A DNA stretch of 21,869 bases from Candidatus Thorarchaeota archaeon (GTDB lineage: Archaea; Asgardarchaeota; Thorarchaeia; Thorarchaeales; Thorarchaeaceae). This document shows positions 1 to 20,286 of the stretch, piece after piece. The stretch lies in contig JAWAQK010000042.1 in assembly GCA_038893995.1 (NCBI GenBank), positions 1-21,869 on the forward strand, in the 5' to 3' direction. Each line of letters starts with the position of its first letter. The first letter of the stretch is position 1. The notes under the pieces were generated by a model. The model did not search any database, was not told the origin of the DNA, and worked only from the letters and a program-made list of their open reading frames with translations. The position numbers and the translations under genes were made by a program.

Positions 1-1134
1 AAGTATCCCGACTGGGCTCCGCCGATACCTGACGGAGCGCCCCCTGCGGCAACCGTCCTAGGAGATGCCATAGAGAGAGGTTTCTCTCTTGTGACAGGCG
101 TGTATGGTCCCCAGGCAGACATGATAATGGGACTGGAGGTTGTCCTACCCACTGGGGAGATCTTCAGGACAGGTTCTTGGGCGCTTGAAACTGCGAAGCC
201 CTACTACCGTTGGGGCCCCGGGCCAAACCCTGACGGCCTGTTCCTAGGTTCGCAGGGGTCGATGGGTATCATCACAAAGGCGGCAATTAAGATAGTCCCT
301 CACCCACACTTCAAGACGGTCGTCGCCTACGGAGGTCAGAACTGGGAGGACATCATTCGCCCTGCCTGGGAGATCTCCAAACACGAGATGGGAATTGCAG
401 ACAATACGGTCATGGTGCAGGGCGGAAACTGGCCACTTGTGATGACACGCTGGCCAAAGACCAATGTGCCAGTCAACTACGAGTTCTACAAGAAGATTGG
501 AATAAGCGAGTATTGGATGAACTACGAGGTCTGGGCCTGGTCCCAGGAAGAGCTTGACTACGCACTGGCCAGGATCGATGAGATCTACAAGTCGTATGAA
601 ACTGCAGCGAATACAAAGTGTCCAAAGTGGGATCTACACCCCAAACAGATCGCTTCGCGTCTAAAGAAGCCAAACAAGATTGCCATACCCTACTCGCTAT
701 GGCAGGCTGGGTTCCTCTTCATCACATGGTATGTCCCGTGGCTTGAGAGTCCCGCCTGCATGACAGAGTACTGTGCCAAGATGGAGGAGTACGGTTTCCC
801 GCCAACAATGTGGGTTGCATCAATTGACCACTGTCGACAGGCCATCGTGATGCCAATCGTATGCTTTGACAGCACCGAGAAGGGCATCTACGAGAAGATA
901 AGGGAGTTCAACCTTGAAACAACGAGGTCATTCTTGAAGAAGGGATGGCTCAACTATCGACCTGATCCATTTGTCCATGCCCCCGAGACCTTTAGTCGCA
1001 CGCCGGAGTTCTACAAGATGCTGCTAAAGTTCAGGAAGGTATTGGATCCAAACCTCATCCTTCATCCTGGACGACTGGCGATACCCTGGGAATCTGTGAC
1101 CGACCTTCCGAATCCATGTGGTTCCAGTGGGTGA
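1..1134 (+). CDS. FAD-binding oxidoreductase, VAO/PCMH (FAD_binding_4 + FAD-oxidase_C) family; 5'-partial
   Basis: Frame 1 is open from base 1 (KYPDWAPPIPDGAPPAATVLGDAIERGFSLVTGVYG...), so the ORF-track start at 91 is internal. Family motifs: GLEVVLPTGEIFRTG, GPNPDGLFLGSQGSMGIITK and C-terminal LDPNLILHPGR. Confidence 0.9.
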   Translation, partial: KYPDWAPPIPDGAPPAATVLGDAIERGFSLVTGVYGPQADMIMGLEVVLPTGEIFRTGSWALETAKPYYRWGPGPNPDGLFLGSQGSMGIITKAAIKIVPHPHFKTVVAYGGQNWEDIIRPAWEISKHEMGIADNTVMVQGGNWPLVMTRWPKTNVPVNYEFYKKIGISEYWMNYEVWAWSQEELDYALARIDEIYKSYETAANTKCPKWDLHPKQIASRLKKPNKIAIPYSLWQAGFLFITWYVPWLESPACMTEYCAKMEEYGFPPTMWVASIDHCRQAIVMPIVCFDSTEKGIYEKIREFNLETTRSFLKKGWLNYRPDPFVHAPETFSRTPEFYKMLLKFRKVLDPNLILHPGRLAIPWESVTDLPNPCGSSG

Positions 1135-1162
1135 GGATGTCATGAAGATACCAAAACCAACG

Positions 1163-1170
1163 TTTAATAT
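1163..1170 (+). promoter_or_regulatory. candidate TATA box for the Fe-S protein gene
   Basis: TTTAATAT about 30-37 nt upstream of ATG 1200, preceded by A-rich sequence; GGAGGA RBS at 1185-1190. Confidence 0.4.
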
Positions 1171-1199
1171 GAATCGTCGCGGCTGGAGGAGCGAATGAG

Positions 1200-2507
1200 A
1201 TGACGACCCTTGAAGATCTGAGATCCATCAATGCACGTTGCATTCACTGTAGAGCATGTCAATACGCCTATTCTGGTGAGCCAGACCGGCAAGGAGAGAC
1301 CGAGGAGTACACCGGGATGCTGCAGGGATGTCCCGCAGGCATCTACAACGGCTGGGAGGGCTTCTTCAACTCTGGTAAGCAGTGGATGGCAAGGGCCTTC
1401 CTGAACGGAGAGATGAAGCCGAGCAGGGAACTGCTTGAAGTTGCTGAGGCCTGTACTACCTGTGGCATGTGCGAGACTCAGTGCCCCAACTATATTGATA
1501 CCGTTCTCGTCACTGAGGCCTTGAGAGCAGCCATCATCGAGAGCGGAGTAGAACCGCTGGAGAAGCATGGCAAGTTTCGGGCAATGGTCGCAGATCCCAA
1601 GATGCGGAATCCCTACAACGAGCCCAGAGAGAAACGTACTGCCTGGTGGACCGGTGAGCTGGACAGAAGAGACGTCAAGGCGGCGTACTTTGTCGGCTGC
1701 ACGGCCTCATACAGACAACAGCCGATAGCGAATCACACCACCAGTATCCTCAAGAAGCTCGGGATCGACTTCACGATACTCTCTGATGAGGTCTGTTGTG
1801 GTTCGCCGCTTCTGAGGACAGGACAACGCACCACCTTCACAGAGGTCATGAACGAGAATCTCAAGAATTTCAAGGACTTCGATCTTGTGGTGTTCTCCTG
1901 TGCGGGATGCTACAAGACATTCAGGAACGACTATCCACGCATGAGCGGGAAACCATTACCCTTCAGGGTCAGGCACACGGTCGAGTTGGTTTACGATCTC
2001 ATGAAGCAGGGCACCCTCAAGATTGAGCGACCATATCCGAAGAAGGTCACATGGCACGACCCCTGCCACAGTATTCGGCATGTAGGGCTGGCCATCGAGA
2101 AGGAATTCCTACACAAGTCCAAGAACTGGCTACTTGACAGTCGTAACGCCGAGAAGGCCAAGGAGGAACACTACGAGATACCCCGTGTCGTGCTGAGATC
2201 GATACCACAGCTCGAACTACACGAGATGTATCGTATAAAGGGTGACTCTTTCTGCTGCGGCGCGGGCGGAGGTGTAAAGGCACAGTTCCCTGACATGGCC
2301 CTGTCGACGGCAAGAGAGCGACTGAAGGAGGCAGCCTCGACGGGTGCTGAAGTCCTGATGACTTCCTGCCCCTTCTGCGTCACCAACTTCAATGACGGGA
2401 TAAAGTCGTTGAGAGAAGAAGAGTCGCGCACTGGCAAGGACCTGTCGTCGGTGGGCTCGAGGTTGAAGGTGGTCGAGCTGCTCGAGTTGCTTGATGAGCT
2501 ACTGTAG
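1200..2507 (+). CDS. (Fe-S)-binding protein, HdrD/GlpC/GlcF-like (2x[4Fe-4S] domain + two CCG domains)
   Basis: Ferredoxin motifs CIHCRAC...CP and CTTCGMCETQCP; CCG motifs GCTA..EVCCGSP..SCAGC and HDPCH..CCGAGGG..SCPFC. Confidence 0.92.
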   Translation: MTTLEDLRSINARCIHCRACQYAYSGEPDRQGETEEYTGMLQGCPAGIYNGWEGFFNSGKQWMARAFLNGEMKPSRELLEVAEACTTCGMCETQCPNYIDTVLVTEALRAAIIESGVEPLEKHGKFRAMVADPKMRNPYNEPREKRTAWWTGELDRRDVKAAYFVGCTASYRQQPIANHTTSILKKLGIDFTILSDEVCCGSPLLRTGQRTTFTEVMNENLKNFKDFDLVVFSCAGCYKTFRNDYPRMSGKPLPFRVRHTVELVYDLMKQGTLKIERPYPKKVTWHDPCHSIRHVGLAIEKEFLHKSKNWLLDSRNAEKAKEEHYEIPRVVLRSIPQLELHEMYRIKGDSFCCGAGGGVKAQFPDMALSTARERLKEAASTGAEVLMTSCPFCVTNFNDGIKSLREEESRTGKDLSSVGSRLKVVELLELLDELL

Positions 2508-3704: not shown

Positions 3705-5552
3705 TCATCTTTCACTCATGTAGGGGTCCTCTCCACTGTCGATGTCCTTGTAGCCATACTCCGCAAGTATGTCCTCTATTCTCTGTGCATTCGCAGTCCA
3801 CCTCAGGTTCCAGTGCCCATCATCCGTCACTGTGACCTCCACGTCAGGTAGATCTCCCAGTAGGTTGTGGTCAGCCTCGATGACGTCCTGATACGCTCCC
3901 GTGAGGGCTATCAGGAAGTAAGAACCCTGAAGTCTTCTGAGGTTGCCAACAGGAATTCCGACTCCGATCCCTCCATTCGGCATGGTCAGTGGACGATAGT
4001 CGCGCGTGAACCACAGGTCGTCAGCAGGCTTCCTGTAGAACAGGGACGCCTCCCCGTCAGAGTCGCAAGTTATGTCCACCAACCTCACTGTAGTCTCGGG
4101 CCGTACGTGAAGGTCCGTGACTGGGAGTATCGGGAAGTACTGGTTCACAAGGACATGGTCCAGGATGCTGTTGAAGACGGAGAAGTTGCCCACTGCGATG
4201 TAGTCCGGATGCCACAGGCTCTCGACTGTCTTGTCTGGCCAGATGCTGCCGGTCGCCAGTCGTGCCAGCTGCTTCCTTGCCTCTGCCCGGACCTCATTGA
4301 GGATCTGTTCGCTGTCCCGAATCTCTGAGAGAGTGGCTCCAGTGCATGTTCGATTCGTCTGAAACTCAGTCCATGTTTCAGCAATCTCATTGACGGACAT
4401 TGCCTGTCTCAGCCTGGAAACGGAGTTCTCCCTCTCCCTTGACAGTTCCTCGTCAAGCACGTCGCCAGCGGGGGGAAACACAGACCTGACCTCAAGGACC
4501 TTCACCAGTATTGCCGAGCTGAGTGCAGTGATACCACGACCAGACTCAATCATGATATCAGGATGCTCGGATCCGGGGGAGACAGACTGGTGCTCCTCAA
4601 GTACACTCTCCACAATGGCTCTTGCATATGTGTCCATGAGATCTGACGGGTTCGAGCTTGTGTAGTCTATGGGGAGCCCCCCTCCAAAGTCAATTGTGGT
4701 GAGAAGAGGGAACCCCTCCTCTCTGACTTGAGTGTAGGCTCGAAACATGAACCGCGCGAATTTCCTGATGTCCTCGAATGCTGTGACCTGTGAACCAACG
4801 TGCGCCAGTATGGTGCTGACTGAGTCTGCATACCCCCTCTCCTTGAGGTGAGACATCACGTCAAACAGGTCATGGATGCCTAGGCCGAACTTGGAGTCAC
4901 GACCTCCAGAGTGAGACCAGTGCCCTCTCACAGTCAGGTATGGTTTCAGACGCAAGACAATCTGTACAAGGCCTGGTGGCAGCATCTCGGTCACGAGTCT
5001 GGCCTCGTAGAGCGACTCGATGGAAACTGCGACCTCGTGCCCCAGCTCGGCACAGCGCAGGACCAGTTGAAGATACTCCGGGTCCTTCGCCCCATTGCAT
5101 ATGATCAGCCTGTGTTTCTCGTTGGAGGTGACTATCTTGGCCAGGAAGAGCTCTGTCTTGGTCCCGACCTCCAGCCCATAGTCCTTGTCTGAGCCGAGGA
5201 CCGCAAGCACACAGTCCGCTCTCTGGTTTGCCTTGACAGGATAGACCGCCCTGAAGGCGCCTCGATAGTCCTTCTCCTTCATGACGTCTGCAAATGCCTT
5301 TCTGAGCTTCATGATCTGGGACTCGATCAGCTGTGGGAAACGGATCGTGAAGGAAGAAGTGTAAGCAGCCCTGTTGACATTGTTGGAATTGACCGTTTCG
5401 ATGATGTCAACCACTGGAATGGTGTGGCCTCTTATCCGCAGTATCAGTCTCCCTGCTGCATCTATGTCAAGAAAGTGGAGGTCGCTCCTGTCCACTCCGT
5501 AGACAAGCTTCGACCTCTCGATTGTCCATTGGTCTGTACTCACCTTGCTCAC
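3705..5552 (-). CDS. speA: PLP-dependent (fold type III) biosynthetic arginine decarboxylase-like enzyme
   Basis: YPVKANQ (PLP lysine), GLEVGTKTEL, CNGAKD, SKFGL, HVGSQ, DFGGGLPIDY, ESGR, NFSVF..D, DITCDSDG and GAYQD...HNLLGD follow the SpeA motif series. GTG start. Confidence 0.85.
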   Translation of the reverse strand: MSKVSTDQWTIERSKLVYGVDRSDLHFLDIDAAGRLILRIRGHTIPVVDIIETVNSNNVNRAAYTSSFTIRFPQLIESQIMKLRKAFADVMKEKDYRGAFRAVYPVKANQRADCVLAVLGSDKDYGLEVGTKTELFLAKIVTSNEKHRLIICNGAKDPEYLQLVLRCAELGHEVAVSIESLYEARLVTEMLPPGLVQIVLRLKPYLTVRGHWSHSGGRDSKFGLGIHDLFDVMSHLKERGYADSVSTILAHVGSQVTAFEDIRKFARFMFRAYTQVREEGFPLLTTIDFGGGLPIDYTSSNPSDLMDTYARAIVESVLEEHQSVSPGSEHPDIMIESGRGITALSSAILVKVLEVRSVFPPAGDVLDEELSRERENSVSRLRQAMSVNEIAETWTEFQTNRTCTGATLSEIRDSEQILNEVRAEARKQLARLATGSIWPDKTVESLWHPDYIAVGNFSVFNSILDHVLVNQYFPILPVTDLHVRPETTVRLVDITCDSDGEASLFYRKPADDLWFTRDYRPLTMPNGGIGVGIPVGNLRRLQGSYFLIALTGAYQDVIEADHNLLGDLPDVEVTVTDDGHWNLRWTANAQRIEDILAEYGYKDIDSGEDPYMSER

Positions 5553-5573
5553 GCCCAGTGGCAGGCATGTCTC

Positions 5574-7055
5574 CTATTGCTCATCCCCCTTGATGGAGTC
5601 GAGCATGCCCTGGAAGGCCCTTGCCAGCTCGCCGATCTCATCGTCCTTGGAGATGTAGTCAGCATCGACACGCAAGTCTTCGGTGTCCAGTGGTTTGTCC
5701 CTTATTATTGCACTAACGTTCCGCAGGGCAATGTCCATCAGGTACTGCAATGGCTTTGTGACTTGGTTTGCCACGGTCGCTGTGACAATTCCCGCAAGGA
5801 TGACAGCCAATGTGGTGATACTCAGGATGAACAGAATCGACCGTGTGATATTGAGCCGTATCGTGTTCTGCAGTTCAGGTATGGCTGCCAGGACCTCCTC
5901 CATGGGCGCAATTATGATGCAGACATAGCCACCTCTCTCGATGGGGGCGTATGCCATCACCAATTGCTTCCCGTTGCGTGTGTATGTAAACGTCCCCGTA
6001 CCACCGGCAAGCAGCATGTCAAGCTGTTCCTGAGTCAACGCCGACGTCCCGTCTGAGTTCCTCTCGACTTGGGAGAGCGGAGGAAGGCCCGCCACATACT
6101 GCTCGGCCGGGACTTCTCTGTGAGCGATCACGCCCACATACTCACTCGGAGGTGGTCCTGGATCAACCACTCTCTTGACAAGTGCTGCATAGCCTGTCTC
6201 GAGTATGCCGACTCCCAAGATCTTCTGGTTGATGTCCTCTATCGTTATGTCACCGGATATGACCCCAATGAGCGAATTGTTTTCCCTGAAGTATACCGCC
6301 TTGCCGATAGATATCAGTAGTACTCCATCGATCTCGTCGTAGTACGGTTCAACGAAGACGACATCCCCGTTTCCGGCCCTGATTTGCAGGTACCACTCCT
6401 CAAGGTATGGCCTGTAGGGCTCATTGATCCGGTCTGTATCAGTGCCACCTACAATGCTGCCTGGGTAATTGATGAACAGTCCGTCGCGTGCGAAGGCAAG
6501 ATACAGCCATCTGAAATCAGGCATCTGCGCATGTGCCGCCTGGAACATGTAGTCGAGGTTTGATATACGCCCCAGTCTGCCCGCATTTGCGCTCTCATAC
6601 GCTGAGTAGTTGCTCGAGGTGGTGCCCGGAGCATACCAGCTACTGTAATTCCAAGAGATATTTATCCCGTATCTCGCGTCATAGTGAGTGTCCGCCGGTC
6701 TTGGGCCCGCGTACTCGAAAAAGTAGTCGTAGTAGACGGCGCGTGGCTGGTATGTGGAACTGGGGGAAAGAATCCTCTCGCATTCGTAGGCCAGTGCCCG
6801 TATCATGGCTTCCGCATTGGCAAGCTTCTGGTCTATCACCCTGGCATTGTTGACCGCAGTCTGGTTCATGTGTCGCCGTATCTGCGTTTCCAGTGCAGTG
6901 GAGCTCTCTCCAATTGCAGATACACCCATCAGATCCAGAAACTGGAGGGCGATGAACCCTGTCACAGCAACTGAGAGTACTGTGATTACAATGGATGTCG
7001 CGATCACATTGCGCTTGAAACTGCCCTTCTTCCTGGTTTCAGTCAGCGTTGCCAC
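5574..7055 (-). CDS. membrane sensor: TM-dCache_1-TM-HAMP with no C-terminal output domain
   Basis: N-terminal TM; Cache motifs WLYLAF..GLFINYP..Y...EEWY..EPYYD..GVISGDI..GYAALV; second TM; HAMP (KPL...DEIGELARAF) ending about 12 aa later. GGAGGTGA RBS at 7063-7070 overlaps the upstream stop. Confidence 0.88.
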   Translation of the reverse strand: MATLTETRKKGSFKRNVIATSIVITVLSVAVTGFIALQFLDLMGVSAIGESSTALETQIRRHMNQTAVNNARVIDQKLANAEAMIRALAYECERILSPSSTYQPRAVYYDYFFEYAGPRPADTHYDARYGINISWNYSSWYAPGTTSSNYSAYESANAGRLGRISNLDYMFQAAHAQMPDFRWLYLAFARDGLFINYPGSIVGGTDTDRINEPYRPYLEEWYLQIRAGNGDVVFVEPYYDEIDGVLLISIGKAVYFRENNSLIGVISGDITIEDINQKILGVGILETGYAALVKRVVDPGPPPSEYVGVIAHREVPAEQYVAGLPPLSQVERNSDGTSALTQEQLDMLLAGGTGTFTYTRNGKQLVMAYAPIERGGYVCIIIAPMEEVLAAIPELQNTIRLNITRSILFILSITTLAVILAGIVTATVANQVTKPLQYLMDIALRNVSAIIRDKPLDTEDLRVDADYISKDDEIGELARAFQGMLDSIKGDEQ

Positions 7056-7069
7056 TCGTCTTTCACCTC

Positions 7070-9934
7070 CTAGTACTCCACCGTGCTCCCGCCCACCTCG
7101 AGCTGGGCCATCATTACTGCCACTTGTTCGAATGCCTTCTGCACATCACGTCTGACATTGGTGCTGTCTACAACAGAGAGGTACTGGCCCTGAGGCACAT
7201 TGTTGCACAGATACTGTAGTAGATCCTCAGTGGTCATTATCTGTCCAGTCACCGGTGATCTCAGGGACTTGGCCCCTGCTGCAGCAGGAAGCTTGAGCTC
7301 ATTACCCACACCTATGACTATCAGGTTTACATCAAGGTGGTTGTCCCTGATATATCCCTCGATGGTGAGAGGTTTCTTCTTCTTCATCCTGTCCTTCTCC
7401 CTCACGATGCCCTTGAGAAGATCCAACGAGTAGGTCTTGGAGCTGTTGTCTTGGCCATCGGTCAGGGCAATGACCCACCTATGCTCACTGCTTGGGATCC
7501 TGTCGAGTGACTCAAGAGCCTTCCCGAGGGCATCGTAGAAAGCTGTAGCGCCGCTCGGATGTCGTAGTGTGTCGAGAGTCCTGAGTATGTTGCTCTCATT
7601 GTCTCGTTCGAACTCTCCTCTCCGGGTCAGTGGAAGGACCTCAGTATACGCATCGTTGAACACTATGACAGACACATCGTCCTGTGGATTGACGTGACTC
7701 CTCACGATCTCCTTTGCGCCCATCACGGCCGCCCTGATACGGTCCTGTGCCTGCATGCTTCCCGAGTAGTCTATGACAAATATCACGCTCTTCTTGAACT
7801 GGGCAGACCGGCGAAGTCTCTCAGCCCTCCGACGTACATCGTGGCTAGACTTGTCCAACTGGTCTAACACATCTGCAAGCTTGCTCAGGGCATAGACCTG
7901 TAACCAGTTGTCCTGGGTCAGCTCAGACAACCGGACAGCCTCCTCGAAGGCTACCTCCGCCTTCTGCCACTGCTTCTGGGTCTCATAGAGTTCGCCTTTG
8001 TGATACTGAATGTATGCCAGCGTGCGTTCTGCGTTCTGGCGCAATGCTATTCTCTCAGCCTCCTCGAATCTCGAGAGAGCCTGGCTGATGCGGTTCTGTC
8101 TGAGCATCACCAGACCCATTGCATCAAATCTCTTGGCCAGACCAAGCTCGTTCTTCAGGGTCCTGTCAATGGCCTCAGCCTCCTCGAGATGCTTCATTGC
8201 AGTATCGAACTCGCCACGGTCCATCGACACGAGTGCCATGTTGTGATAGATCGACCCTATGCGCTGAAGTGCATCTGACTCATCCTTTCCTCCCTCCTTA
8301 GATCGTTCCAACATTGCTTTTGCAATCTCCAGAGAACGGTTGTAGTGATCTGTTGCCGTACGAGTGTCTCCACGCTGTCTGTAGACGTTGCCGATGTTCA
8401 ACAGCATGGTCTGTATGCCCTCCTCTATCGCAAGACGACGACTTATCTCCAGTAGGTTCTCATAGTTCGCGAGTGCCCTTCGAAGGTCTCCCCTGATGAA
8501 GGACTGGTTGCCGTATCTGCAGGCCTCTTGGAAGCTCAACAGTGCGTCGATGGTTGTGCCTATCTCCTCGTACATGGCACCTGACATGCTCATGCTGCGG
8601 GTGAAGTCCTGAGTCGACATCTTCTGGACGAGTTTCGTCATCTCTCGAACAGGCTGTACAACCGCCTTTCCCTTCGCATAGGCAACCCCAGTCACTACGG
8701 CTGCAACTGACGCCAGGACACCTATCAGAATGAGAGTGAGTATGAGCGTCTGGCTGACAATGGCGTTCAACATTGCTATCGCCGGTGCCACTACCTCTGA
8801 CGCTGGTACGACTACGGCAAGCAGGAAATCGACATTTGGTATCACGGCATAGGTCATGTACCACAGCTTTCCATTCTTGTAATACTGGGCCTGACCTCTC
8901 CCTTCCTCAAGTGCAGTGCTGATTATCGTCTTGAATGCATTTGCCTCCGAACTCGTCGGTGATGAGAACTCGAGATCGTACACAGTCTGTCCCTCGGCTG
9001 TAAAGAGGGGATGTGCCACCAGTTCGGAGTTCCTCTCCATCAGAAATGCATAGCCGCTGTTGAGTATCTTCACGTCAAGGACACTCTGCAGGATTGTTTC
9101 GAGCGTCACATCCGCGGATACGACCCCGAAGACTGTTCCATTATCGAAACGTATGGGACGCGCCATAGATATGACCAGTCCGGTCGAGGGGTCGAGATAG
9201 GGCCCGGTGAAGGCTATGCTCTCGTTACCGAAGGCAATTGCGTTTGTATACCACTCCTCGTTCGGGGGGTCGTAGTCTTCTGCAGGCGTATCGCCCAAGA
9301 AGTATGAGAGTCTGTCGTAAGGATAGTTGCGAAACAGGTGGCTGTCGCAGTACGATGGGTCAAAGGCCATGTAGAGCCAGATGTAGTCAGTACTCATCTC
9401 GTGGAGTGCCCTGTACATGTTATCCATGTTGGACGACACCTCAATGAAGTACCTTGTACTGGGACTCCAGTCAAAGGGGTCGCCAGGGGTCTTGTAGTAG
9501 GGTCTGGGCATGTAGTAGCAGCTGACCTCAAACGAGATGTCGCTCGAGTCATATCTCTCCACGTAGTGTCTACCTGGAACCAGCATTCCTGTTTGAGCGA
9601 ACTCCAGTTCCCAGTCCCAGAAGTAAGAGTGTTGAGGGGTGGCCAGGATACGGGCGTTGAAGAGGTCTTCTGCATACCTCTCCATCATGTAGACCCCATC
9701 AATGTAGTTCTGAATCTTCTCCTGTATGAAGATTGCCGTGTCGTTGGCCAATCTCTCTAGATCTGCGAGCTCCTCATTTCTCAGTGCATCTGATGCAAGA
9801 AGTGCACTCTCATTGGAGGCATCTGTTATGGTGATAACAGAGATTGCGGATATTGCCAGAATCGGTATCAGTGACACCAGGACAAACGTCACGACGATTC
9901 TCTTGCTGATTTCCAATTGGTCCATCTCTCCCAT
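7070..9934 (-). CDS. membrane receptor: TM-dCache_1-TM-HAMP-TPR repeats-VWA
   Basis: Cache motifs YDPPNEEWY/GPYLD/GVVSADV/SGYAFL..LVAHP; TM2; HAMP (QPVREM..EEIG); about 5-6 TPR-like repeats (NIGNVY, HNMALV, DAMGLV, YHKGELY); C-terminal VWA with intact MIDAS (D722YSGS, GATAFYDAL, ALTDG). Confidence 0.88.
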   Translation of the reverse strand: MGEMDQLEISKRIVVTFVLVSLIPILAISAISVITITDASNESALLASDALRNEELADLERLANDTAIFIQEKIQNYIDGVYMMERYAEDLFNARILATPQHSYFWDWELEFAQTGMLVPGRHYVERYDSSDISFEVSCYYMPRPYYKTPGDPFDWSPSTRYFIEVSSNMDNMYRALHEMSTDYIWLYMAFDPSYCDSHLFRNYPYDRLSYFLGDTPAEDYDPPNEEWYTNAIAFGNESIAFTGPYLDPSTGLVISMARPIRFDNGTVFGVVSADVTLETILQSVLDVKILNSGYAFLMERNSELVAHPLFTAEGQTVYDLEFSSPTSSEANAFKTIISTALEEGRGQAQYYKNGKLWYMTYAVIPNVDFLLAVVVPASEVVAPAIAMLNAIVSQTLILTLILIGVLASVAAVVTGVAYAKGKAVVQPVREMTKLVQKMSTQDFTRSMSMSGAMYEEIGTTIDALLSFQEACRYGNQSFIRGDLRRALANYENLLEISRRLAIEEGIQTMLLNIGNVYRQRGDTRTATDHYNRSLEIAKAMLERSKEGGKDESDALQRIGSIYHNMALVSMDRGEFDTAMKHLEEAEAIDRTLKNELGLAKRFDAMGLVMLRQNRISQALSRFEEAERIALRQNAERTLAYIQYHKGELYETQKQWQKAEVAFEEAVRLSELTQDNWLQVYALSKLADVLDQLDKSSHDVRRRAERLRRSAQFKKSVIFVIDYSGSMQAQDRIRAAVMGAKEIVRSHVNPQDDVSVIVFNDAYTEVLPLTRRGEFERDNESNILRTLDTLRHPSGATAFYDALGKALESLDRIPSSEHRWVIALTDGQDNSSKTYSLDLLKGIVREKDRMKKKKPLTIEGYIRDNHLDVNLIVIGVGNELKLPAAAGAKSLRSPVTGQIMTTEDLLQYLCNNVPQGQYLSVVDSTNVRRDVQKAFEQVAVMMAQLEVGGSTVEY

Positions 9935-9951
9935 GATAGTTTCTCTGCTGG

Positions 9952-11400
9952 TTAGACTGTAAGAGCGACCAGCTCCTGTTCAAGGCGTCTCACAAACTCC
10001 TCACGGTTCTGTCTGTCGTCCAGTTCGAAAGTATTCTCAGAGAGTGTTCCTCGGACGGCCTCCTCTCCCAGCAGTATGATCAGAGTCCTTCTGAGTATCT
10101 CTCGAGGCACACCTGTCTGTTGTTCAAGCTTGAGTATCTCTACTGTCCGCCGGTTGCGTAGGAGATCTGTCAAGACGCGCCTGACCTGCTGGATCTCTGA
10201 CACGGTGGGCCCGAGCTTATCGATGGGCCTTGTCTTGGGTGTTCTGATGAATGTATTGCCCTCTATGTGACCGTCCAAAGCCCTGATCTGAATCATCTTC
10301 TGCAGTGTTCGTCTCAGGTTGTAGGGAACAGGCCTAGGTAATGTCCGCCTGAGAATCCTGTCGAGGTCTTTGAGTTCAATCCGACTGTGCTTTGAGGTTA
10401 TCGAGTCGATACTCTCCCTGAGGTACTGCTCTACTGCGTATTCACTCAGCATCTCAAGTACTGCTCCGCATGACTCACACCTGGGGCTCTCTGGAGTAGT
10501 AGGGGCGCCACAGTTACCACACTTGATGGCCCTCCTGTAGAGGATCTGCTTGGTTGACATGATCTCGTTCAACACGACTCTCTCTGTCTTCGTGGGCTGG
10601 TCAGTATCGTGGACAGTCCAAAATGACAGTCTGCGATCGCTAGTAGCCACTACGACGTACGCCAAGTCCGAGACATTGTTGGGAGTACCTGTTGCTACGG
10701 CCCTAGGCCTGTCGCGGAGCTGGACGGTGCCAACAGCTCTTCCTTCTAGGTCCCATATCTTGAGCACACTGGAGTCATCGCCCGTGATGAGAAGTTTCCT
10801 ATCACCGAATGTAAGTACAGCGAAGACTGTCAGTCTGTCTCCGAGTCTGAACTCGCGTAGTTTGTAGCCAGCTGTGCTCACCACTGTCACAAGGCCTTTC
10901 CTGTCAGCCACAATGACCTCCAGCTCACCATCATCAGGAGTCATATCCTCTAGCCAGACATCAGCCACAGGGTCCTGCATGCTCCTGCTGAAGAGTGCAG
11001 TCCTATCATCATTCCACAGAATCACCCGTCGATTATCGAGCGCAACAGCGACCTCTGCTGACCCGTCTCCGTCGACATCACGTGCGTCACATGCTATCAC
11101 GTCGCTCTCCAGTGCAATACTCCAGACTGTCCTTCCCCGCTGATCCACGACAAGCACATTCTTGCCGATTCCTCCCACGAGGGCATCGCTTCCGTTACCC
11201 TCAATGTCAGCGACTGCAATGCATCTTACTCGGCTGCTGTATCTCTTGGAGGTCTTGAGATTCCCTGACACATCATATACGCTGAGTTGGTCGGCGTAGT
11301 CGAGAGCAAATACCTGTGCATATCCATCGGGGCGTTGCCTCAAGTAGACTGAGTACCCCTCGGCTGAAAGTGGTACATTAGCGACTTCCCGCAGCTTCAA
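9952..11400 (-). CDS. cytoplasmic beta-propeller (FG-GAP/BBS2-like DxDGDG blades) + C4 Zn-ribbon + two PCI-like winged-helix domains
   Basis: Repeated blades ADIEGNG, RDVDGDG, EDMTPDDG and WD-like LKIWD/LSFW; CGNC-x10-CESC; two helix-helix-wing segments ending LDGHIEGNTFI and VRGTLSENTFEL. TTG start, no signal peptide. Confidence 0.75.
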   Translation of the reverse strand: MKLREVANVPLSAEGYSVYLRQRPDGYAQVFALDYADQLSVYDVSGNLKTSKRYSSRVRCIAVADIEGNGSDALVGGIGKNVLVVDQRGRTVWSIALESDVIACDARDVDGDGSAEVAVALDNRRVILWNDDRTALFSRSMQDPVADVWLEDMTPDDGELEVIVADRKGLVTVVSTAGYKLREFRLGDRLTVFAVLTFGDRKLLITGDDSSVLKIWDLEGRAVGTVQLRDRPRAVATGTPNNVSDLAYVVVATSDRRLSFWTVHDTDQPTKTERVVLNEIMSTKQILYRRAIKCGNCGAPTTPESPRCESCGAVLEMLSEYAVEQYLRESIDSITSKHSRIELKDLDRILRRTLPRPVPYNLRRTLQKMIQIRALDGHIEGNTFIRTPKTRPIDKLGPTVSEIQQVRRVLTDLLRNRRTVEILKLEQQTGVPREILRRTLIILLGEEAVRGTLSENTFELDDRQNREEFVRRLEQELVALTV

Positions 11401-11434
11401 TTCACTGCGCCTTGCATGGGGTCAGCGATGAATT

Positions 11435-11443
11435 CAATATAAG
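11435..11443 (-). promoter_or_regulatory. candidate TATA box for the four-gene operon
   Basis: Minus strand reads gagagCTTATATTG about 35-43 nt upstream of the TTG at 11400. Confidence 0.45.
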
Positions 11444-11809
11444 CTCTCGCAGGGCAAGGGAGGATGCTAGGATGTCGAGTCCAGTACAAGTGGGATTCAG
11501 AGCAACTGCTCTAGACATTCTCCAATGACATCGGCATCTGTCCCGCAGGTCAGGATCGACCTGTTGTATGAAGCGTTCTCACTGGGGGCACCTCTGCCAC
11601 AAGGGGAGGAAGTCCCAACGTCTTCTGAGAGCCACCTACAGCGAACACATGCAGGTGTGTCACTCGATCCGGGCCCGTCTTAGGCAGACCTTGATGTGTC
11701 TAATCAGCGTGCTCCACACGGGGCAGGGGGCTTATGAAGTGACACACTGTTGTACTTCCAGTCACTCGCTGTCAGGAGAAGATGTCCCCACATCCTCAGA
11801 CTCCCTGAG

Positions 11810-13273: not shown

Positions 13274-14200
13274 GTGGTAGACCAGTTGTCCCCGTCTGAG
13301 GTGGAAGACAAGATAATCTCTATCGAAGAGGCGGCAAAGAAGATCCCTGACGGTGCTCACCTGTTCTGGGGAGGATTTGGTTACCAGAGGCCGCCGATCG
13401 CCTTTGCCTCCGAACTCGTCCGACAGAAGAAGAGGAATCTCACTATCTATACTTGTGGGTCAGAGGTGGACCTCGAGATCATGGCAGCCACTGGTGTTGC
13501 CACTCGATTCGAGATAGCGTTTGTTGCAATAGAGGCACTGGGACTGGCCAACAACATGCGTCGTCGCGTGGCGGAAGGGAAGGTTCAGGTCGAAGAGTAT
13601 AGCAATCTCGCAATGGCAATGCGGTTTCTCGGCGGCGCACTAAACGTTCCATTCATGCCAATCAGGAGTCTCATGGGCACGGATATTGCAAACAAGTCCA
13701 GATACAGAGGCGACAAGAAGCTGAAGATCATTGATTGTCCCTTCACAGGAGAGAAGATCTGCCTCGTTCCCTCCGTCCGGCCCGACTACAGCATAGTGCA
13801 TGTGCAGCGTGTCGATGCGATGGGCAATGCACAGATCGACGGGATCGTCGGGGAGGACATTGAGGGTTCACGGTGCGGAAAGAAGCTGATAGTCATGGCA
13901 GAGGAACTGATAGGCACGGAGGAGGTCCGTCACCATCCTGATCAGACAAAGATCCCGTCGATGTACGTGGACCATGTTGTCATACTGCCATTTGCCTCGC
14001 ATCCTATGCAGGTTCACAACTACTACGATTATGACCTCCCCCATCTCATGATGTTCCACAACATGACCAAGACCGAGGAAGGTTGGGAGGAGTACCTCAA
14101 CAGGTACATTCTCGGTGTTCAGGATCATCTTGAGTATCTTAACACGCTGGGTTGGGAGAACCTCAATCGACTGAGAGCAAAGAAACCCTGGGGGTACTAG
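13274..14200 (+). CDS. family I CoA-transferase subunit A (glutaconate/3-oxoadipate CoA-transferase-like)
   Basis: EEAAKKIPDG, GGF..RPP, EEYSN..RF.GGA..VPFMP, DCPFTGEKICLVP, HVQRVDAMGN and YDYD motifs. Confidence 0.9.
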   Translation: MVDQLSPSEVEDKIISIEEAAKKIPDGAHLFWGGFGYQRPPIAFASELVRQKKRNLTIYTCGSEVDLEIMAATGVATRFEIAFVAIEALGLANNMRRRVAEGKVQVEEYSNLAMAMRFLGGALNVPFMPIRSLMGTDIANKSRYRGDKKLKIIDCPFTGEKICLVPSVRPDYSIVHVQRVDAMGNAQIDGIVGEDIEGSRCGKKLIVMAEELIGTEEVRHHPDQTKIPSMYVDHVVILPFASHPMQVHNYYDYDLPHLMMFHNMTKTEEGWEEYLNRYILGVQDHLEYLNTLGWENLNRLRAKKPWGY

Positions 14201-14211
14201 GAGGAGTCACA

Positions 14212-14985
14212 ATGGCCAAGTATAGCAAGATCGAATTTCTCGTCGCCTGTGCCTCTCGTCACGTTCGGGATGGTGAGAATGTATTTGGAGGCACGGGAAT
14301 GCCCCTTCTGGCAGCGCTGCTTGCCAAGGAAACACACGCACCGAGGGCCAATCTGATCTCGGAGGCAGGATTCATAGATGCCCGGCCGAGGAATGTACCT
14401 CTGTCAGTTGCAGATTCCAGATACTACTACGGCTGCTCCGCCTCGATAGGTCTCATAGAAACTCTGGGTTTCATCCTGCAGGCAGGTCGGATTGATGTCG
14501 GCTTCCTCGGAGCCGCACAGATCGATGAGTATGGCAATATCAACACCACATACATAGGACCCTTTGAGAGTCCAAAGGTGAAATTGCCAGGGAGTGGTGG
14601 CGGCAACGATATCGCATCCAGTGCCAAGCGGCTGATTATCATGATGACTCACGAGAAACGTAAGTTCGTCAAGCAACTCGACTATCTCACCAGTCCGGGT
14701 CATCTGCAGGGTCCTGGGTCACGAAAGAAGTGGTCGCTTGTCGGGGGAGGACCCGATGTGGTCATAACAGATATGTGTCAGATGGACTTTGATCCCGTCA
14801 CATTGAGGATACGTCTAATGTCAGTCCATCCAGGCTATACCGTCGATGATGTGCTCGACAACGTGATGTTCGACCTCATCGTACCCGACAAGGTTCCCAC
14901 AACACCAGAACCAACCCAGGAACAGATCGAGATAATGCACAAGCTAGACCCGCATGGTGTGTATCTTGGGAAGGGCGGAGAATGA
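14212..14985 (+). CDS. family I CoA-transferase subunit B
   Basis: True start is probably ATG 14212 after a GAGGAG RBS. Motifs GTGMP, LISEAG (catalytic Glu position), FLGAAQIDEYGNIN, LPGSGGGNDI and SVHPG. Confidence 0.9.
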   Translation: MAKYSKIEFLVACASRHVRDGENVFGGTGMPLLAALLAKETHAPRANLISEAGFIDARPRNVPLSVADSRYYYGCSASIGLIETLGFILQAGRIDVGFLGAAQIDEYGNINTTYIGPFESPKVKLPGSGGGNDIASSAKRLIIMMTHEKRKFVKQLDYLTSPGHLQGPGSRKKWSLVGGGPDVVITDMCQMDFDPVTLRIRLMSVHPGYTVDDVLDNVMFDLIVPDKVPTTPEPTQEQIEIMHKLDPHGVYLGKGGE

Positions 14986-14992
14986 AACAGGG

Positions 14993-15742
14993 TTGAGTGA
15001 GTTGAGGTCATCTCTACACGACTACAGGGCCGTCGTATTCGACCTTGACAACACCCTGACTGACACAAAGCGATATCCGGTGAGAGCATGCAAGTGGCTC
15101 CTCTCAGAGGCGGGTGTCGATCCAGACCGAGACATTGAACCATTCCTTTCAATCCTGGTCAGAGAGTACTTCAAGGGTCTTGAGAAGGTGGTCACGGGGG
15201 GGCCCTACAGGGATCCATATGCAATTGTACGTACTGCAATGGGGAATGCATCTCGCGAGTTCGGTCTCAATGTGGACGAGTGTGTCCTGGATGAAGCAAC
15301 GATGCTCTTCAGGGCCCTCCATGTTGAGGTCCCCGAACTGAGAGATGGTGTTCGTCAGATACTGACAACGCTCCGCGGATATGGGGTCAGACTGGGTGTT
15401 GTGACGAACTCATTTGAGGGACACATCCGCCCCATATTGAGTCGCATCAAGATCATCGACCTCTTTGACGCCATAGTCGACCCAAGCATGGTTCGAGCAT
15501 ACAAGCCAATGCCTCAGCCATTTGAATCTGTGATGGCGATTCTCGGCACACGACCACCAGACACGCTCTACATCGGCGATGAGTTCTACGCTGACGTCGT
15601 CGGCGCGAAGAGACTGGGCATTGATGTAGTATGGTTGAATCACAGGGGTCAGAGTCTGGATCAACATCTCGAGAAACATGGTCCGGAGTACAGACCTTCA
15701 CTTGTGGTGTCTGAGATGGTCGAACTACTGAAGCTGCTCTAG
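14993..15742 (+). CDS. HAD superfamily hydrolase (subfamily IA)
   Basis: Motif I FDLDNTL, motif II VVTN, motif III KP, motif IV IGDEFYADVVGA. In-frame TTG at 14993 chosen to avoid overlap with the upstream gene; start uncertain. Confidence 0.9.
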   Translation: MSELRSSLHDYRAVVFDLDNTLTDTKRYPVRACKWLLSEAGVDPDRDIEPFLSILVREYFKGLEKVVTGGPYRDPYAIVRTAMGNASREFGLNVDECVLDEATMLFRALHVEVPELRDGVRQILTTLRGYGVRLGVVTNSFEGHIRPILSRIKIIDLFDAIVDPSMVRAYKPMPQPFESVMAILGTRPPDTLYIGDEFYADVVGAKRLGIDVVWLNHRGQSLDQHLEKHGPEYRPSLVVSEMVELLKLL

Positions 15743-16557: not shown

Positions 16558-17790
16558 GTGTTCGACAGCACAAGACATCTGTGCATATTGATGATCGTGG
16601 TCCTTGTGGTCATCATTCCTCAGGAGGCTTCAGCACAGACCCGCGGGCCACCGACCGAGACGCCAATGCCTCCGAGTCCGGTGAGTCCTCCGATCGGCTA
16701 CGCCAGGGACGATGGCATGTTCCTGATTCGGACCAATGTGATGACAGTACTGGCAGTCCCCGAAGTACCTCAGTTCCACTTCTGGTTCACCAGTGATGAC
16801 GGTGCTTCCGCAAATTTCTCACTGCTGTTTCGATCGATCATTGAGTTCGAGGACCTAAATGGAGATGGAGTCTATCAGTCCAACGAGACTGTTCATACTG
16901 CACACCTGTCAGCCTACGAGTGGGCACTGCAGACAGGTCTTGTCGTTGTGAACGATGTTACCGTGGAGGTCTGGCTCAAGTACACAAAGGGAGGTGTAGG
17001 GGTTCATCCCTCTGCGGAGGTTGATTCTCCAGATGTCGGCTCCACTCCAGAATCGGTCTCGTGGTTCAGGAACACGACAATTCAGATCTGGGCACATGTG
17101 TACTCATACGACTACTATGGAAACTTCTCTGACGGTAGCGAGTTGGTTTCTTACTCGGTAAGACACGGGTCGGAACTGAAGATGGACATTGTTGTGAGCA
17201 ACTTTCCGTTCAGTTCTCCCTCATCCATGGCTGTCATCCAGATGCTGTTGCGCGAGGACATGGCGACAGGCCCACATGCTGATTGGAGACACAGATACGT
17301 TACACGTGAGAGGAATCGAAACAATACTGGAGTATCGTGGAAAGACTGGAATCAGAGTGAAGGAAATGAGACCAGGTTCGAGCCTAGAAACGAAACTCAC
17401 ACACAACGGATTGACATTGAAGACACAGGGTCGTCAACCGTACAGGGATTCGTCAGCTGGCTTGACAGAGCTTTGATCACACTGCCTGGGGGTTTGAGAG
17501 AGGTGGTGGAAGTCGGAGCGTCATATGTCCCAGTAGGAACTGGACTTGCGATAAACATATGTTACCCTAACTTCGACGGAGGCACCCTTGTCAACGACCC
17601 GTCACTTGGACTGTACGAGGATGCTGCTCCGTCTCCTGTTCGGCCGCCAGTCGATACGACGGTCGTACTCCTCGTTGCGACGGTCTGCATAGTCGTACTG
17701 GGACTGGGGACCAAGTGGCACAGATCACGTCGCTGGGGGTCTGACCTGACGTTATCAAGACACACTATACATGTTCTGGACTGGTGCTGA
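16558..17790 (+). CDS. secreted, C-terminally membrane-anchored surface (glyco)protein
   Basis: Signal peptide (hydrophobic core, ASA|Q), Pro-rich linker, DLNGDG Ca-binding-like loop, many N-x-S/T sequons, beta-rich body, C-terminal TM followed by basic residues. Confidence 0.8.
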   Translation: MFDSTRHLCILMIVVLVVIIPQEASAQTRGPPTETPMPPSPVSPPIGYARDDGMFLIRTNVMTVLAVPEVPQFHFWFTSDDGASANFSLLFRSIIEFEDLNGDGVYQSNETVHTAHLSAYEWALQTGLVVVNDVTVEVWLKYTKGGVGVHPSAEVDSPDVGSTPESVSWFRNTTIQIWAHVYSYDYYGNFSDGSELVSYSVRHGSELKMDIVVSNFPFSSPSSMAVIQMLLREDMATGPHADWRHRYVTRERNRNNTGVSWKDWNQSEGNETRFEPRNETHTQRIDIEDTGSSTVQGFVSWLDRALITLPGGLREVVEVGASYVPVGTGLAINICYPNFDGGTLVNDPSLGLYEDAAPSPVRPPVDTTVVLLVATVCIVVLGLGTKWHRSRRWGSDLTLSRHTIHVLDWC

Positions 17791-17792
17791 GG

Positions 17793-18782
17793 ATGGAATC
17801 CAGGCTATTCATGTGGCTGATCATGACAATGGTCCTGGTGGGCCAGGTCGGCTCGCCTGGCCTGATTCATAGCACATCACAGTACGACGGGCTCTCAGCG
17901 GACCCTGTCCAGATTCGAGCAGTACTCCGAACGGAGGGTCCAGTTTCATTCATTGCCGACTTGACTTTTCACAACACAGGCCCCGATGAGGTGGAAGTCC
18001 TACCTATAAGGATTGACTCGCTCCGTGTGAGTCTGTCGACTGTGGATGTCGGTGATGTCACTGCACATAGTACAGTCACGACTTACAGTCGTTACACCGA
18101 GATCTTGGTGTCTCTATCCGATCGTCTACAGCCAGGGACTTCCGCGAAAGTCCATCTGGAGTTCTCTACCGACGACCTTCAGTCGACTCCTAGGATAGGT
18201 CCTGATGCTGCGCATTACCTATCAGAGTTCGTGTACTATGTACGACCTGCCTGCACCTTCTCGAATTTCACTCTGTACGTGCACCTGCCCATCTCAGCTA
18301 CACTCTCCGAATCTTCTGCAGTCCCAGTATTTCCGGTTCCTACAGGAAACTACACTGACGGAAAGATACTGGTCTTCTACTGGACTTATGACGAGATACT
18401 CATCGGCCAGGAACGTGTCTTCATGGTCAAGTATCAGTATCCGCTCGATTCCTCGGGGGATCTGGTCGTTTCAGGTCTCATCTGGATGATGCTACTACTC
18501 GGGTTTGTCATGGGTGCATTGACGATGCGATATGGTCCAGTAGTCGTGCGTAGCCTCAGGCGAGTTGGTCGCACTCGTTATGTAGGCGTCACTTCGGAGG
18601 AGCAGGAGATCCTTGACATCATTCGGTCAAGGGGTGGCTCATGTCCGCAGAAGGAACTCTATCAAGAGTCTAACATGTCTCAGGCGAGAGTCAGTGTCAT
18701 ACTGAATAACCTCGAGGAGCGAAACCTGGTCAAGAGGTTTCGTGAGGGTCGCGAGAACATAGTGTATCTGATGGAGCAGTGA
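17793..18782 (+). CDS. membrane-anchored winged-helix transcriptional regulator (COG2512-like)
   Basis: Signal/TM, extracellular beta domain, TM, then wHTH (EEQEILDII..GG..PQKEL...MSQARVSVILNNLEERNLVKRFREGREN). ATG 17793 lies 2 nt after the upstream stop; GTG 17784 is an alternative. Confidence 0.85.
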   Translation: MESRLFMWLIMTMVLVGQVGSPGLIHSTSQYDGLSADPVQIRAVLRTEGPVSFIADLTFHNTGPDEVEVLPIRIDSLRVSLSTVDVGDVTAHSTVTTYSRYTEILVSLSDRLQPGTSAKVHLEFSTDDLQSTPRIGPDAAHYLSEFVYYVRPACTFSNFTLYVHLPISATLSESSAVPVFPVPTGNYTDGKILVFYWTYDEILIGQERVFMVKYQYPLDSSGDLVVSGLIWMMLLLGFVMGALTMRYGPVVVRSLRRVGRTRYVGVTSEEQEILDIIRSRGGSCPQKELYQESNMSQARVSVILNNLEERNLVKRFREGRENIVYLMEQ

Positions 18783-18830
18783 TTGGCGTCCCATCAGGCG
18801 ACGTACGACGACGCCTCGGCCAGGGGAATA

Positions 18831-18843
18831 GAAAGGCTTTATA
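18831..18843 (+). promoter_or_regulatory. BRE/TATA promoter of the mutase operon
   Basis: GAAAGGC-TTTATA, followed by a GAGGTGA RBS at 18880-18886 before TTG 18891. Confidence 0.6.
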
Positions 18844-18890
18844 CCAGCTGGGGGAGCACTCCTGTCGATTCGGACCGCCGAGGTGAGCCT

Positions 18891-19292
18891 TTGAGTTCCG
18901 GTAGAAAGATACGAGTCCTCATTGCAAAACCAGGCCTGGATGGTCATGACCGAGGCGCCAAGGTAGTCGCAAGGGCACTTCGTGATGCAGGAATGGAGGT
19001 CATCTACACGGGCCTGAGACAGACTCCTGAGATGATCGTACGCGCAGCTGTTGACGAGGCAGTCGACGTCATAGGTCTGAGCATTCTGAGCGGTGCTCAC
19101 ATGGCACTATTTCCGCGAATAATGGAGCTCCTTCGGCAAGAGAAGGCCGACAATGTTCTGGTCGTTGCGGGTGGTATAATCCCTCAGGACGACATACCTG
19201 AGCTGAAGAAGATAGGTATTGCAGAGGTCTTTGGCCCCGGCACTCCCCTGAACGAGATCGTGGAGTACATCAAGGCACACGTGAAGTTGTAA
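18891..19292 (+). CDS. methylmalonyl-CoA mutase small subunit (cobalamin-binding domain)
   Basis: [14 protein letters not shown] (DxHxxG), [14 protein letters not shown] and FGPGT. Start moved from 18783 to TTG 18891 because of the RBS and promoter. Confidence 0.93.
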
Positions 19293-19314
19293 TACTTCCA
19301 AGAGGACTGAGGAC

Positions 19315-20277: not shown

Positions 20278-20286
20278 TTTCGCTGC

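Follow-up and report, generated by a model that had tools for sequence, protein, structure and literature searches.

What does a membrane receptor signal through when no enzyme stands behind it? Among the extracellular sensors of prokaryotes, Cache-HAMP receptors are the most common, and an enzyme is what they normally drive. An operon from a Candidatus Thorarchaeota archaeon of the family Thorarchaeaceae (GenBank assembly GCA_038893995.1, contig JAWAQK010000042.1) encodes two receptors of this kind, CacheA and CacheB, together with a soluble propeller protein, P0001, and an arginine decarboxylase of the SpeA type, and thus raises the questions of what the receptors sense and how they pass the signal on. 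The window that we analysed is the entire contig, 21,869 bases long, and comes from a metagenome-assembled genome (MAG) of 2.33 Mb that is 91% complete. The reading that we favour, with a confidence slightly above an even chance, is that the operon encodes a conserved, Asgard-specific and enzyme-free membrane sensor of cationic amines, which is fused transcriptionally to a housekeeping SpeA and tunes agmatine and polyamine homeostasis. The sensors themselves belong to the dCache_1-HAMP class; the novelty of the system is its unprecedented non-enzymatic output, which consists of protein-docking modules and a soluble partner only and is conserved over several Asgard classes.

The locus had been described, in an original prediction made from the DNA letters, as four minus-strand genes behind one TATA-like element, and both the open reading frames (ORFs) and the sequence agree with this description: the genes for P0001, CacheA (P0002), CacheB (P0003) and SpeA (P0004) follow one another with intergenic gaps of 17, 14 and 21 nt. 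Across 17 orthologous loci, one of which has lost most of the operon to a deletion scar, the element (A/C)CTTATAT(G/T)G is retained at -41 to -45, as is GGTGC near -15. A single conserved TATA element and the tight packing of the genes fit one transcription unit. In several loci the TATA box is overlapped or followed by short inverted repeats of the form CTTA..TAAG (window 11401-11470 and orthologous promoters, inspected by eye); these could mark an operator and are too inconsistent, among sequences that are related, to be called as one. CacheB and speA share a reading frame across one TAG (window 5553-5576). The gap between these two genes in orthologues is 9, 12, 16, 18, 21, 25 or 28 nt or is replaced by an overlap (start codons are approximate), and since the frame relation is not conserved, a read-through fusion is unlikely.

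Profile scans of the four operon proteins and of the other ORFs in the window revealed no kinase, MCP, GGDEF, cyclase, phosphatase or receiver domain, in line with the claim that the receptors lack any of the usual signalling outputs; HisKA/HATPase_c, EAL and SpoIIE outputs were likewise not found in the operon or in the remaining ORFs of the window. In other genomes the opposite strand encodes a PAS histidine kinase three genes upstream, and this gene is present also where the module is absent. The PADLOC models of defence systems gave a generic TPR match only, and nothing for P0001, CacheB or SpeA. Pfam and NCBIfam matches, together with structure models, reproduce the domain make-up first proposed for the four proteins, apart from the PCI domain assigned to P0001, to which we return below.

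Both receptors exceed the cut-off of 45 bits for dCache_1 (PF02743), CacheA with 58.0 bits and CacheB with 47.0 bits, and in both proteins hydrophobic spans flank this domain on either side. CacheB ends after a HAMP domain (PF00672, 26.2 bits with a cut-off of 25) and is likely a co-receptor without an output domain. The corresponding segment of CacheA is HAMP-like: it has no Pfam match, and it is marked by the invariant residues P428 and E457, an EEIG sequence at residues 456-459 and an NCBIfam SiaA match spanning residues 381-463. The cytoplasmic arm of CacheA continues with TPRs (residues 475-700) and a VWA domain (PF13519, 54.8 bits with a cut-off of 27) that carries a metal ion-dependent adhesion site (MIDAS). 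CacheA and CacheB are paralogues, about 25-29% identical by tblastn and genome search, and CacheB is encoded directly behind CacheA wherever the contig runs on past CacheA, with the exception of one complete chromosome (L063), in which no match to CacheB or SpeA follows CacheA. The C-terminus of CacheA, Q-L-E-V-G-G-S-T-x-D-Y (window 7070-7108, minus strand), is almost invariant in Thorarchaeota, and Heimdall-type CacheA proteins end instead in V-D/S-V-E-G-F/L-x-x-D; this acidic tail could be a self-ligand of the MIDAS.

The ligand pocket suggests which class of molecule the receptors recognise. The solved structures closest to the CacheA sensor are those of PctA, PctB and PctC (2e-12), bacterial amino-acid chemoreceptors with the same topology of a transmembrane span, a double Cache domain, a second transmembrane span and HAMP, and the aromatics and Asp that hold the amino group of the ligand in these proteins are kept here, as CacheA has equivalents of PctA residues Y121, W128, Y144 and D173. 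The equivalent of R126 is Glu226. This position is occupied by Glu in all 16 Thorarchaeota CacheA proteins compared and by Glu or Asp in nearly all CacheB proteins, and among the Heimdall, Hod and Hermod relatives an Arg never occurs there. The receptors thus depart at R126 from the dCache_1AA amino-acid motif (Y121, R126, W128, Y144, D173). R126 binds the carboxylate of the ligand and is not conserved in amine sensors (PMC10589655). A negative charge in its place would suit ligands that carry an amino group but lack a carboxylate, for example agmatine or diamines. Among the positions that the dCache_1AM motif shares with the amino-acid motif, D173 and two aromatics are present in CacheA; within archaea, Halobacteriota is the only phylum in which the AM motif was found (PMC10589655). 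Beyond the exchange of the carboxylate-binding Arg for Glu or Asp, the receptors differ from the Pct type in that a TPR-VWA arm or nothing follows HAMP, in that the two paralogues are encoded as a pair, and in the lack of an MCP, kinase, cyclase or phosphatase output.

The association of the receptors with speA extends far beyond the window. In a search of 40 relatives, CacheB was found directly behind CacheA in most genomes of the family, and the four genes are arranged identically in all 16 family loci that we fetched, with identities falling as low as 35-43%. In a scan of 77 loci, with one genome per species, about 45 Thorarchaeota loci were long enough to judge and showed the order HDAC-like< propeller> CacheA> CacheB> SpeA> (HDAC, histone deacetylase), often with a PP-loop gene next in line; most of the shorter loci stop at the contig end. 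The flanks differ in the genome of the window and in two divergent genera, which indicates that the four genes moved as a unit. The order CacheA> CacheB> SpeA> recurs in five genomes of a second family, labelled Heimdallarchaeota, and in several more Heimdall-labelled loci, and SpeA< CacheA> CacheB> is found in Candidatus Hodarchaeum mangrovi and one other locus; the receptor pair adjoins speA in Heimdall-, Hod- and Hermod-labelled Asgard genomes. No conserved upstream partner was found in the Heimdall-type family, and the ORFs of 115 and 328 aa upstream of its first locus, considered as possible relatives of P0001, turned out to be unrelated. We rejected a chance neighbourhood of speA because the linkage survives both relocation and three gene arrangements, and the four genes, taken from the start for one system, do stay together in relatives.

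The flanking genes of the common Thorarchaeota arrangement deserve mention in their own right. In about 40 loci, a gene of the Hist_deacetyl family points away from the operon and speA is followed by one for a PP-loop ATPase (for example L013:5421-6569, minus strand, and L013:14277-15065, plus strand); the former possibly encodes an acetylpolyamine amidohydrolase. Neither gene lies beside the operon in the window, and five HDAC-family genes are found elsewhere in the same genome.

If CacheA drives no enzyme, what does its cytoplasmic arm act on? The original prediction had the signal relayed by the assembly of a protein complex, and structure modelling supports such an interaction, with the propeller of P0001 predicted to dock on a CacheA helix between the TPRs and the VWA domain. 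Complex prediction with CacheA residues 470-954 and P0001, each with a 16-row alignment from the same genomes, gave a score of 0.71 (0.71, 0.73 and 0.71 in individual runs), compared to 0.00 for the best of three controls. Of 80 solved complexes, 58 attain the mark against which this score is read, as do 2 of 110 mismatched pairs, a calibration that holds only roughly because custom alignments were used. The runs share at least 86% of their contacts, and the pLDDT of the partner is at least 84. The contacts of lowest error involve S697, H698, R701, A704, E705 and R709 on the docking helix and, on the face and the first blades of the propeller, Y16, Y35, S56 and R59 as well as the inner-strand residues 100, 122, 144, 167 and 191. 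In both proteins these residues vary little or not at all among orthologues. The score counts in favour of binding and is no proof of it.

An independent check on the docking comes from the distribution of the helix motif S-H-x-x-R-x-x-A-E, which occurs only where a propeller gene is linked: it is present in all Thorarchaeota CacheA proteins and in CacheA of Hodarchaeum, which has a neighbouring propeller homologue, and absent from nine Heimdall- or Hermod-type CacheA proteins without a propeller neighbour. The Hodarchaeum gene (Candidatus Hodarchaeum mangrovi, L093:11337-12641, minus strand) is convergent to the CacheA-CacheB pair and encodes a protein of 434 aa whose propeller shows homology to that of P0001 in its entirety (hhalign 99%, E 5e-18). 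Its other parts are reordered, with the propeller followed by a winged-helix-like stretch and then by a C-terminal Cys-rich zinc module (FYVE/RING-like, a weak match).

The predicted docking partner itself combines a propeller with a tail of putative regulatory character. Built from 29 orthologues, the AlphaFold model of P0001 (pLDDT 87.7, pTM 0.82) shows, in order, a six-bladed propeller of 24 strands, a helix, a C4 ribbon, a helix, two winged helices and a C-terminal helix. The propeller has one D-x-D-G-D loop, D105..D108-x-D110-G-D112..E116, which is invariant in orthologues; its FG-GAP_3 score of 17.7 bits remains below the cut-off of 26.9, and it has six blades compared to the seven of the integrin-alpha/FG-GAP type. 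Foldseek ranked BBS2 first, with WD40, NHL and KICSTOR propellers at near-equal E-values, and a specific kinship was therefore dropped. The ribbon cysteines C294, C297, C308 and C311 are invariant. Modelled alone, the tail reaches a pLDDT of 82.6 and finds its best Foldseek match in the tandem winged helices of UFL1/DDRGK1 (8.5e-4), and the first winged helix (wH1) matches those of cullin/APC2 WHB, eIF3, CSN and PCID2 with Z values of 6.6-7.9, a range that also holds archaeal regulators and the winged helices of replication proteins. The full-length family is restricted to Thorarchaeaceae: 70 of the 85 genomes there encode a member, and no member turned up in the other 315 Asgard genomes. In an exhaustive profile search of 1.8 billion representatives it comprised only two clusters at 50% identity, and exhaustive profile searching for relatives of the half with the zinc ribbon and the winged helices found none outside Thorarchaeaceae.

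The tail had been called PCI-like, a term that holds for the winged helices and not for the domain as a whole. The winged helices do resemble those of PCI proteins, with Z values of 6-7.4, and Pfam PCI (PF01399) matches the tails of 14 of 24 orthologues weakly (best E 8e-4), the window protein itself having no match. The models, however, contain no helical-repeat subdomain before wH1, where a single helix (residues 320-335) is found, and without this half the tail is best described as a tandem winged helix with a PCI-like flavour rather than as a PCI domain. The same holds in comparison with the PCI, cullin and UFL1 scaffolds: wH1 superposes on their winged helices, whereas here no helical-repeat half stands before it, the Z values are in the range of a common arrangement, and bacterial DNA-binding tandem winged helices match about equally. 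Look-alikes of the tail in the ESM Atlas mix UFL1, PCI and CSN2 with bacterial regulators of the GntR/DeoR type at TM scores of about 0.4 and do not discriminate between them. By sequence count, wH1 is strongly basic, with a net charge of about +8, and its helix Y360-N361-L362-R363..Q367 is invariant; this charge and the recognition-type helix of the model lean towards nucleic-acid binding.

Why should a presumed amine sensor be joined to speA? SpeA of the window aligns over residues 11-608 with the solved Vibrio vulnificus enzyme, matches solved SpeA structures over its full length (1e-53) and keeps the lysine that binds pyridoxal phosphate (PLP) as well as the H-x-G-S-Q, G-G-G-L-x-I-D-Y, E-S-G-R and C-D-S-D-G motifs; its scores of 350.3 for NF003763 (cut-off 369) and 325.9 for TIGR01273 (cut-off 624.1) both lie under the equivalog cut-offs. 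The pyruvoyl-dependent archaeal arginine decarboxylase PdaD was not found in the genome of the window and occurs in 0 of 24 other genomes of the family, compared to 12 of 16 genomes of other Asgard families, whereas SpeA occurs in 22 of the 24 family genomes and in 1 of the 16 others. SpeA has thus replaced PdaD throughout Thorarchaeaceae and is apparently the sole arginine decarboxylase there. The genome of the window also encodes TiaS, the agmatine-dependent tRNA-Ile2 enzyme, deoxyhypusine synthase and an agmatinase-like protein. Since the first two of these imply that agmatine is needed for core functions (for hypusine, via polyamines) and since PdaD was not found, the gene content argues that SpeA is a working and probably essential source of agmatine. 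SpeA looks like a regulated housekeeping target or a metabolic partner of the sensor, not like a dedicated signal synthase.

In the mechanism that we propose, a hetero-oligomer of CacheA and CacheB would bind an external cationic amine (agmatine, putrescine or a polyamine of that class), and the ensuing HAMP rearrangement would change the hold of the TPR-VWA arm on the propeller protein. The tail of P0001 with its zinc ribbon and winged helices, freed or held, would then act on the operon promoter or on SpeA, and the synthesis of agmatine and polyamines would be matched to the outside supply in a homeostatic feedback, which is the direction of control that we infer.

Known systems resemble this proposal in part. 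CadC, which controls cadBA in Escherichia coli, is a single ToxR-like membrane sensor with its own DNA-binding domain that responds to substrate, product amine and pH and controls a degradative acid-stress decarboxylase with its antiporter. The likeness, a membrane amine sensor coupled to an amine-making decarboxylase, does not extend to homology, and here the decarboxylase is of the biosynthetic SpeA type, no antiporter is present and DNA binding, if there is any, would fall to a docked partner protein. Anti-sigma factors and the PtsG-Mlc pair follow a logic similar to the one proposed, a membrane protein holding and releasing a soluble winged-helix regulator, but their parts are unrelated; here a linker helix adjacent to the VWA domain is predicted to dock on a beta-propeller, and release and DNA binding are proposals only. 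The alpha2delta proteins and CACHD1, the latter among the sequence matches (8.4e-11), also combine a MIDAS-bearing VWA domain with dCache, but both of their domains are extracellular, with VWA before Cache, whereas here the VWA domain is cytoplasmic and stands behind the membrane span, HAMP and the TPRs.

Several points weigh against the homeostatic amine sensor. The amine pocket is argued by analogy, from the positions that the amine motif has in common with the amino-acid motif, and the winged helices match DNA-binding and protein-binding folds alike at middling Z, so that they may serve either kind of binding. A weak AdoMet_dc homologue (25.4 bits) is encoded on contig 82 (5046-5363) of the same genome and could be a second, pyruvoyl-dependent arginine decarboxylase of the crenarchaeal kind, a caveat to which the completeness of the MAG adds. 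The MIDAS, invariant in all relatives, lies outside the predicted interface, so that at least one important partner of the arm is still missing from the scheme, and the Heimdall-type receptors have neither the docking motif nor the propeller, so that their output must differ. The complex score is the model's own confidence; VWA-propeller pairs such as the integrins have solved structures, and the model's exposure to such pairs may have influenced it, though the predicted interface is formed mainly by the linker helix. The coordinates of the features that enter these arguments are collected in Table 1.

Table 1. Positions of the operon genes and of their main features in the window.
Feature	Position	Strand	Length or basis
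TATA-like promoter element TTATATTG	11435-11442	-	Read directly; 42 nt before the TTG start of P0001
P0001, soluble protein with propeller, Zn-ribbon and tandem winged helices	9952-11400	-	ORF, 482 aa
Six-bladed FG-GAP/VCBS-like beta-propeller of P0001, residues 1-264	10609-11400	-	Model; carries all predicted P0002 contacts
C4 zinc ribbon of P0001, residues 290-316	10453-10533	-	Pfam Zn_Ribbon_1 in 24/24 orthologues
Tandem winged helices of P0001, residues 338-462	10015-10389	-	Models; wH1 340-386, second 400-460
P0002 (CacheA), transmembrane-dCache_1-transmembrane-HAMP-like-TPR-VWA receptor	7070-9934	-	ORF, 954 aa
Membrane-distal ligand pocket of CacheA, Y221..D275	9110-9274	-	Alignment to PctA structures
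Predicted docking helix between TPR and VWA of CacheA, residues 691-709	7808-7864	-	Lowest-error contacts of the complex model
MIDAS D722-x-S724-x-S726 of the CacheA VWA domain	7757-7771	-	With T797 and D826; invariant, Heimdall-type orthologues included
P0003 (CacheB), transmembrane-dCache_1-transmembrane-HAMP	5574-7055	-	ORF, 493 aa
P0004, SpeA-type PLP-dependent arginine decarboxylase	3705-5552	-	ORF, 615 aa
Acidic C-terminal tail of SpeA ending D-P-Y-M	3708-3746	-	Candidate docking peptide, an idea only

The strongest competitor keeps the amine sensor and differs in the output. In this alternative, which we consider unlikely although it deserves to be kept in view, the arm and the propeller form a membrane scaffold that recruits SpeA, and amines switch the activity or stability of the enzyme post-translationally, in the manner of an antizyme and without gene regulation. 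TPRs and MIDAS are classic binders of acidic C-terminal peptides, and the module-linked SpeAs of both the Thor and the Heimdall type end in D-(I/F)-D-x-D/E-D-P-Y-(M/F/V), a tail that judging from its conservation may be a docking peptide for the TPRs or the MIDAS, neither of which has an assigned ligand. The D-P-Y-(M/F/V) end is degenerate or missing in unlinked copies, reading D-S-Y in two of them and being absent from a very divergent one, and the Heimdall-type trios keep their linkage to SpeA although they lack the winged-helix protein. On the other hand, the unlinked SpeA of one genome (G024) retains D-P-Y, and the basic wH1 with its invariant recognition-type helix suggests nucleic-acid binding. 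Genome G024 (loci L037 and L032) carries this stand-alone speA on one contig, and the propeller gene and the N-terminus of CacheA lie on another contig of 4.7 kb that ends before speA, a layout which means that the genome may hold two speA copies.

The original prediction itself had favoured an autoinducer-like circuit, in which agmatine made by SpeA is released and read by the co-transcribed receptors as a measure of population density. A synthase and its receptors do stand behind one promoter, the pocket suits cationic amines, the SpeA product among them, and in the Heimdall-type family the SpeA trio and PdaD coexist in at least one genome, so that SpeA may be accessory there. The fate of SpeA after loss of the sensor tells otherwise. 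Genome G001 carries a deletion scar (L033:10940-11700, minus strand) in which propeller residue about 68 is fused to CacheB residue about 374, leaving the promoter, the first ~68 propeller codons and the last ~120 CacheB codons with frameshifts and stops; the scar lies directly upstream of an intact speA and within the ancestral HDAC/PP-loop flanks. SpeA stands alone in four further genomes. A maximum-likelihood tree places the scar-bearing SpeA as sister to a linked SpeA (100/100) and has two stand-alone SpeAs nested next to a linked one (95/98), and this nesting of unlinked within linked enzymes indicates that the sensors were lost repeatedly and SpeA was kept. The synthase of a quorum-sensing pair would be dispensable to core metabolism and be lost or gained with its receptor, whereas SpeA was retained in every receptor loss observed and is, in Thorarchaeaceae, the only recognisable source of the agmatine that TiaS and the polyamine/hypusine pathway need. 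The operon encodes neither an exporter nor a second synthase, and agmatine and diamines are common in anoxic sediments and would make poor private signals. The housekeeping status of SpeA and its retention upon sensor loss are thus hard to reconcile with a dedicated signal synthase, and we regard the circuit as quite improbable.

That the receptors instead sense a non-amine cue (a nutrient, a metal or a surface), with speA linked through shared regulation or genomic hitch-hiking, is very unlikely in our estimate: dCache_1 domains do bind many chemistries, and the HDAC-like and PP-loop neighbours mark a conserved housekeeping neighbourhood of speA into which the module could have been inserted, but the linkage persists through three arrangements, several Asgard classes and relocation to new flanks, and the clamp that holds the amino group in amino-acid and amine sensors is preserved in the pocket.

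A bolder extension of the homeostatic amine sensor would make ligand-gated docking of the VWA/TPR arm on a propeller/winged-helix protein a distinct kind of prokaryotic transmembrane signalling, free of phosphotransfer and second messengers. Its parts, a cytoplasmic FG-GAP-like propeller, PCI/cullin-like winged helices, a MIDAS VWA domain and TPRs, would then be archaeal relatives of eukaryotic nutrient-sensing and lid-type scaffolds. We give this only a slim chance; if true, the occurrence of the unit in genomes of the Hodarchaeales type would put it near the stem of the eukaryotes.

The claim that no system of this composition had been described stands, as literature searches found no published description of the operon. 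The operon offers a concrete case, open to testing, of signalling without a kinase among the archaea most closely related to eukaryotes. It also shows that Thorarchaeaceae exchanged the pyruvoyl arginine decarboxylase for a SpeA of bacterial type that arrived already coupled to a sensor, an exchange that bears on the supply of agmatine, which is needed for AUA decoding, and on polyamine management in amine-rich sediments. The predicted interface, the pocket residues and the SpeA tail are specific enough to be addressed biochemically with recombinant domains, which does not require cultivated Thorarchaeota.

Elsewhere in the window lie ordinary metabolic genes without relation to the operon: those for a partial FAD-binding oxidase with a CCG/4Fe-4S partner (1-2507, plus strand) and those for the two subunits of a CoA transferase, with a HAD hydrolase behind them (13274-15742, plus strand). 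Further along (16558-18782, plus strand), an ORF of 410 aa without a family match overlaps by 7 nt with an ORF of 332 aa that has a DUF7343/MarR-like winged helix at its C-terminus, and this pair lies directly upstream of the genes for a B12-binding protein, MeaB and methylmalonyl-CoA mutase (18783-21867).

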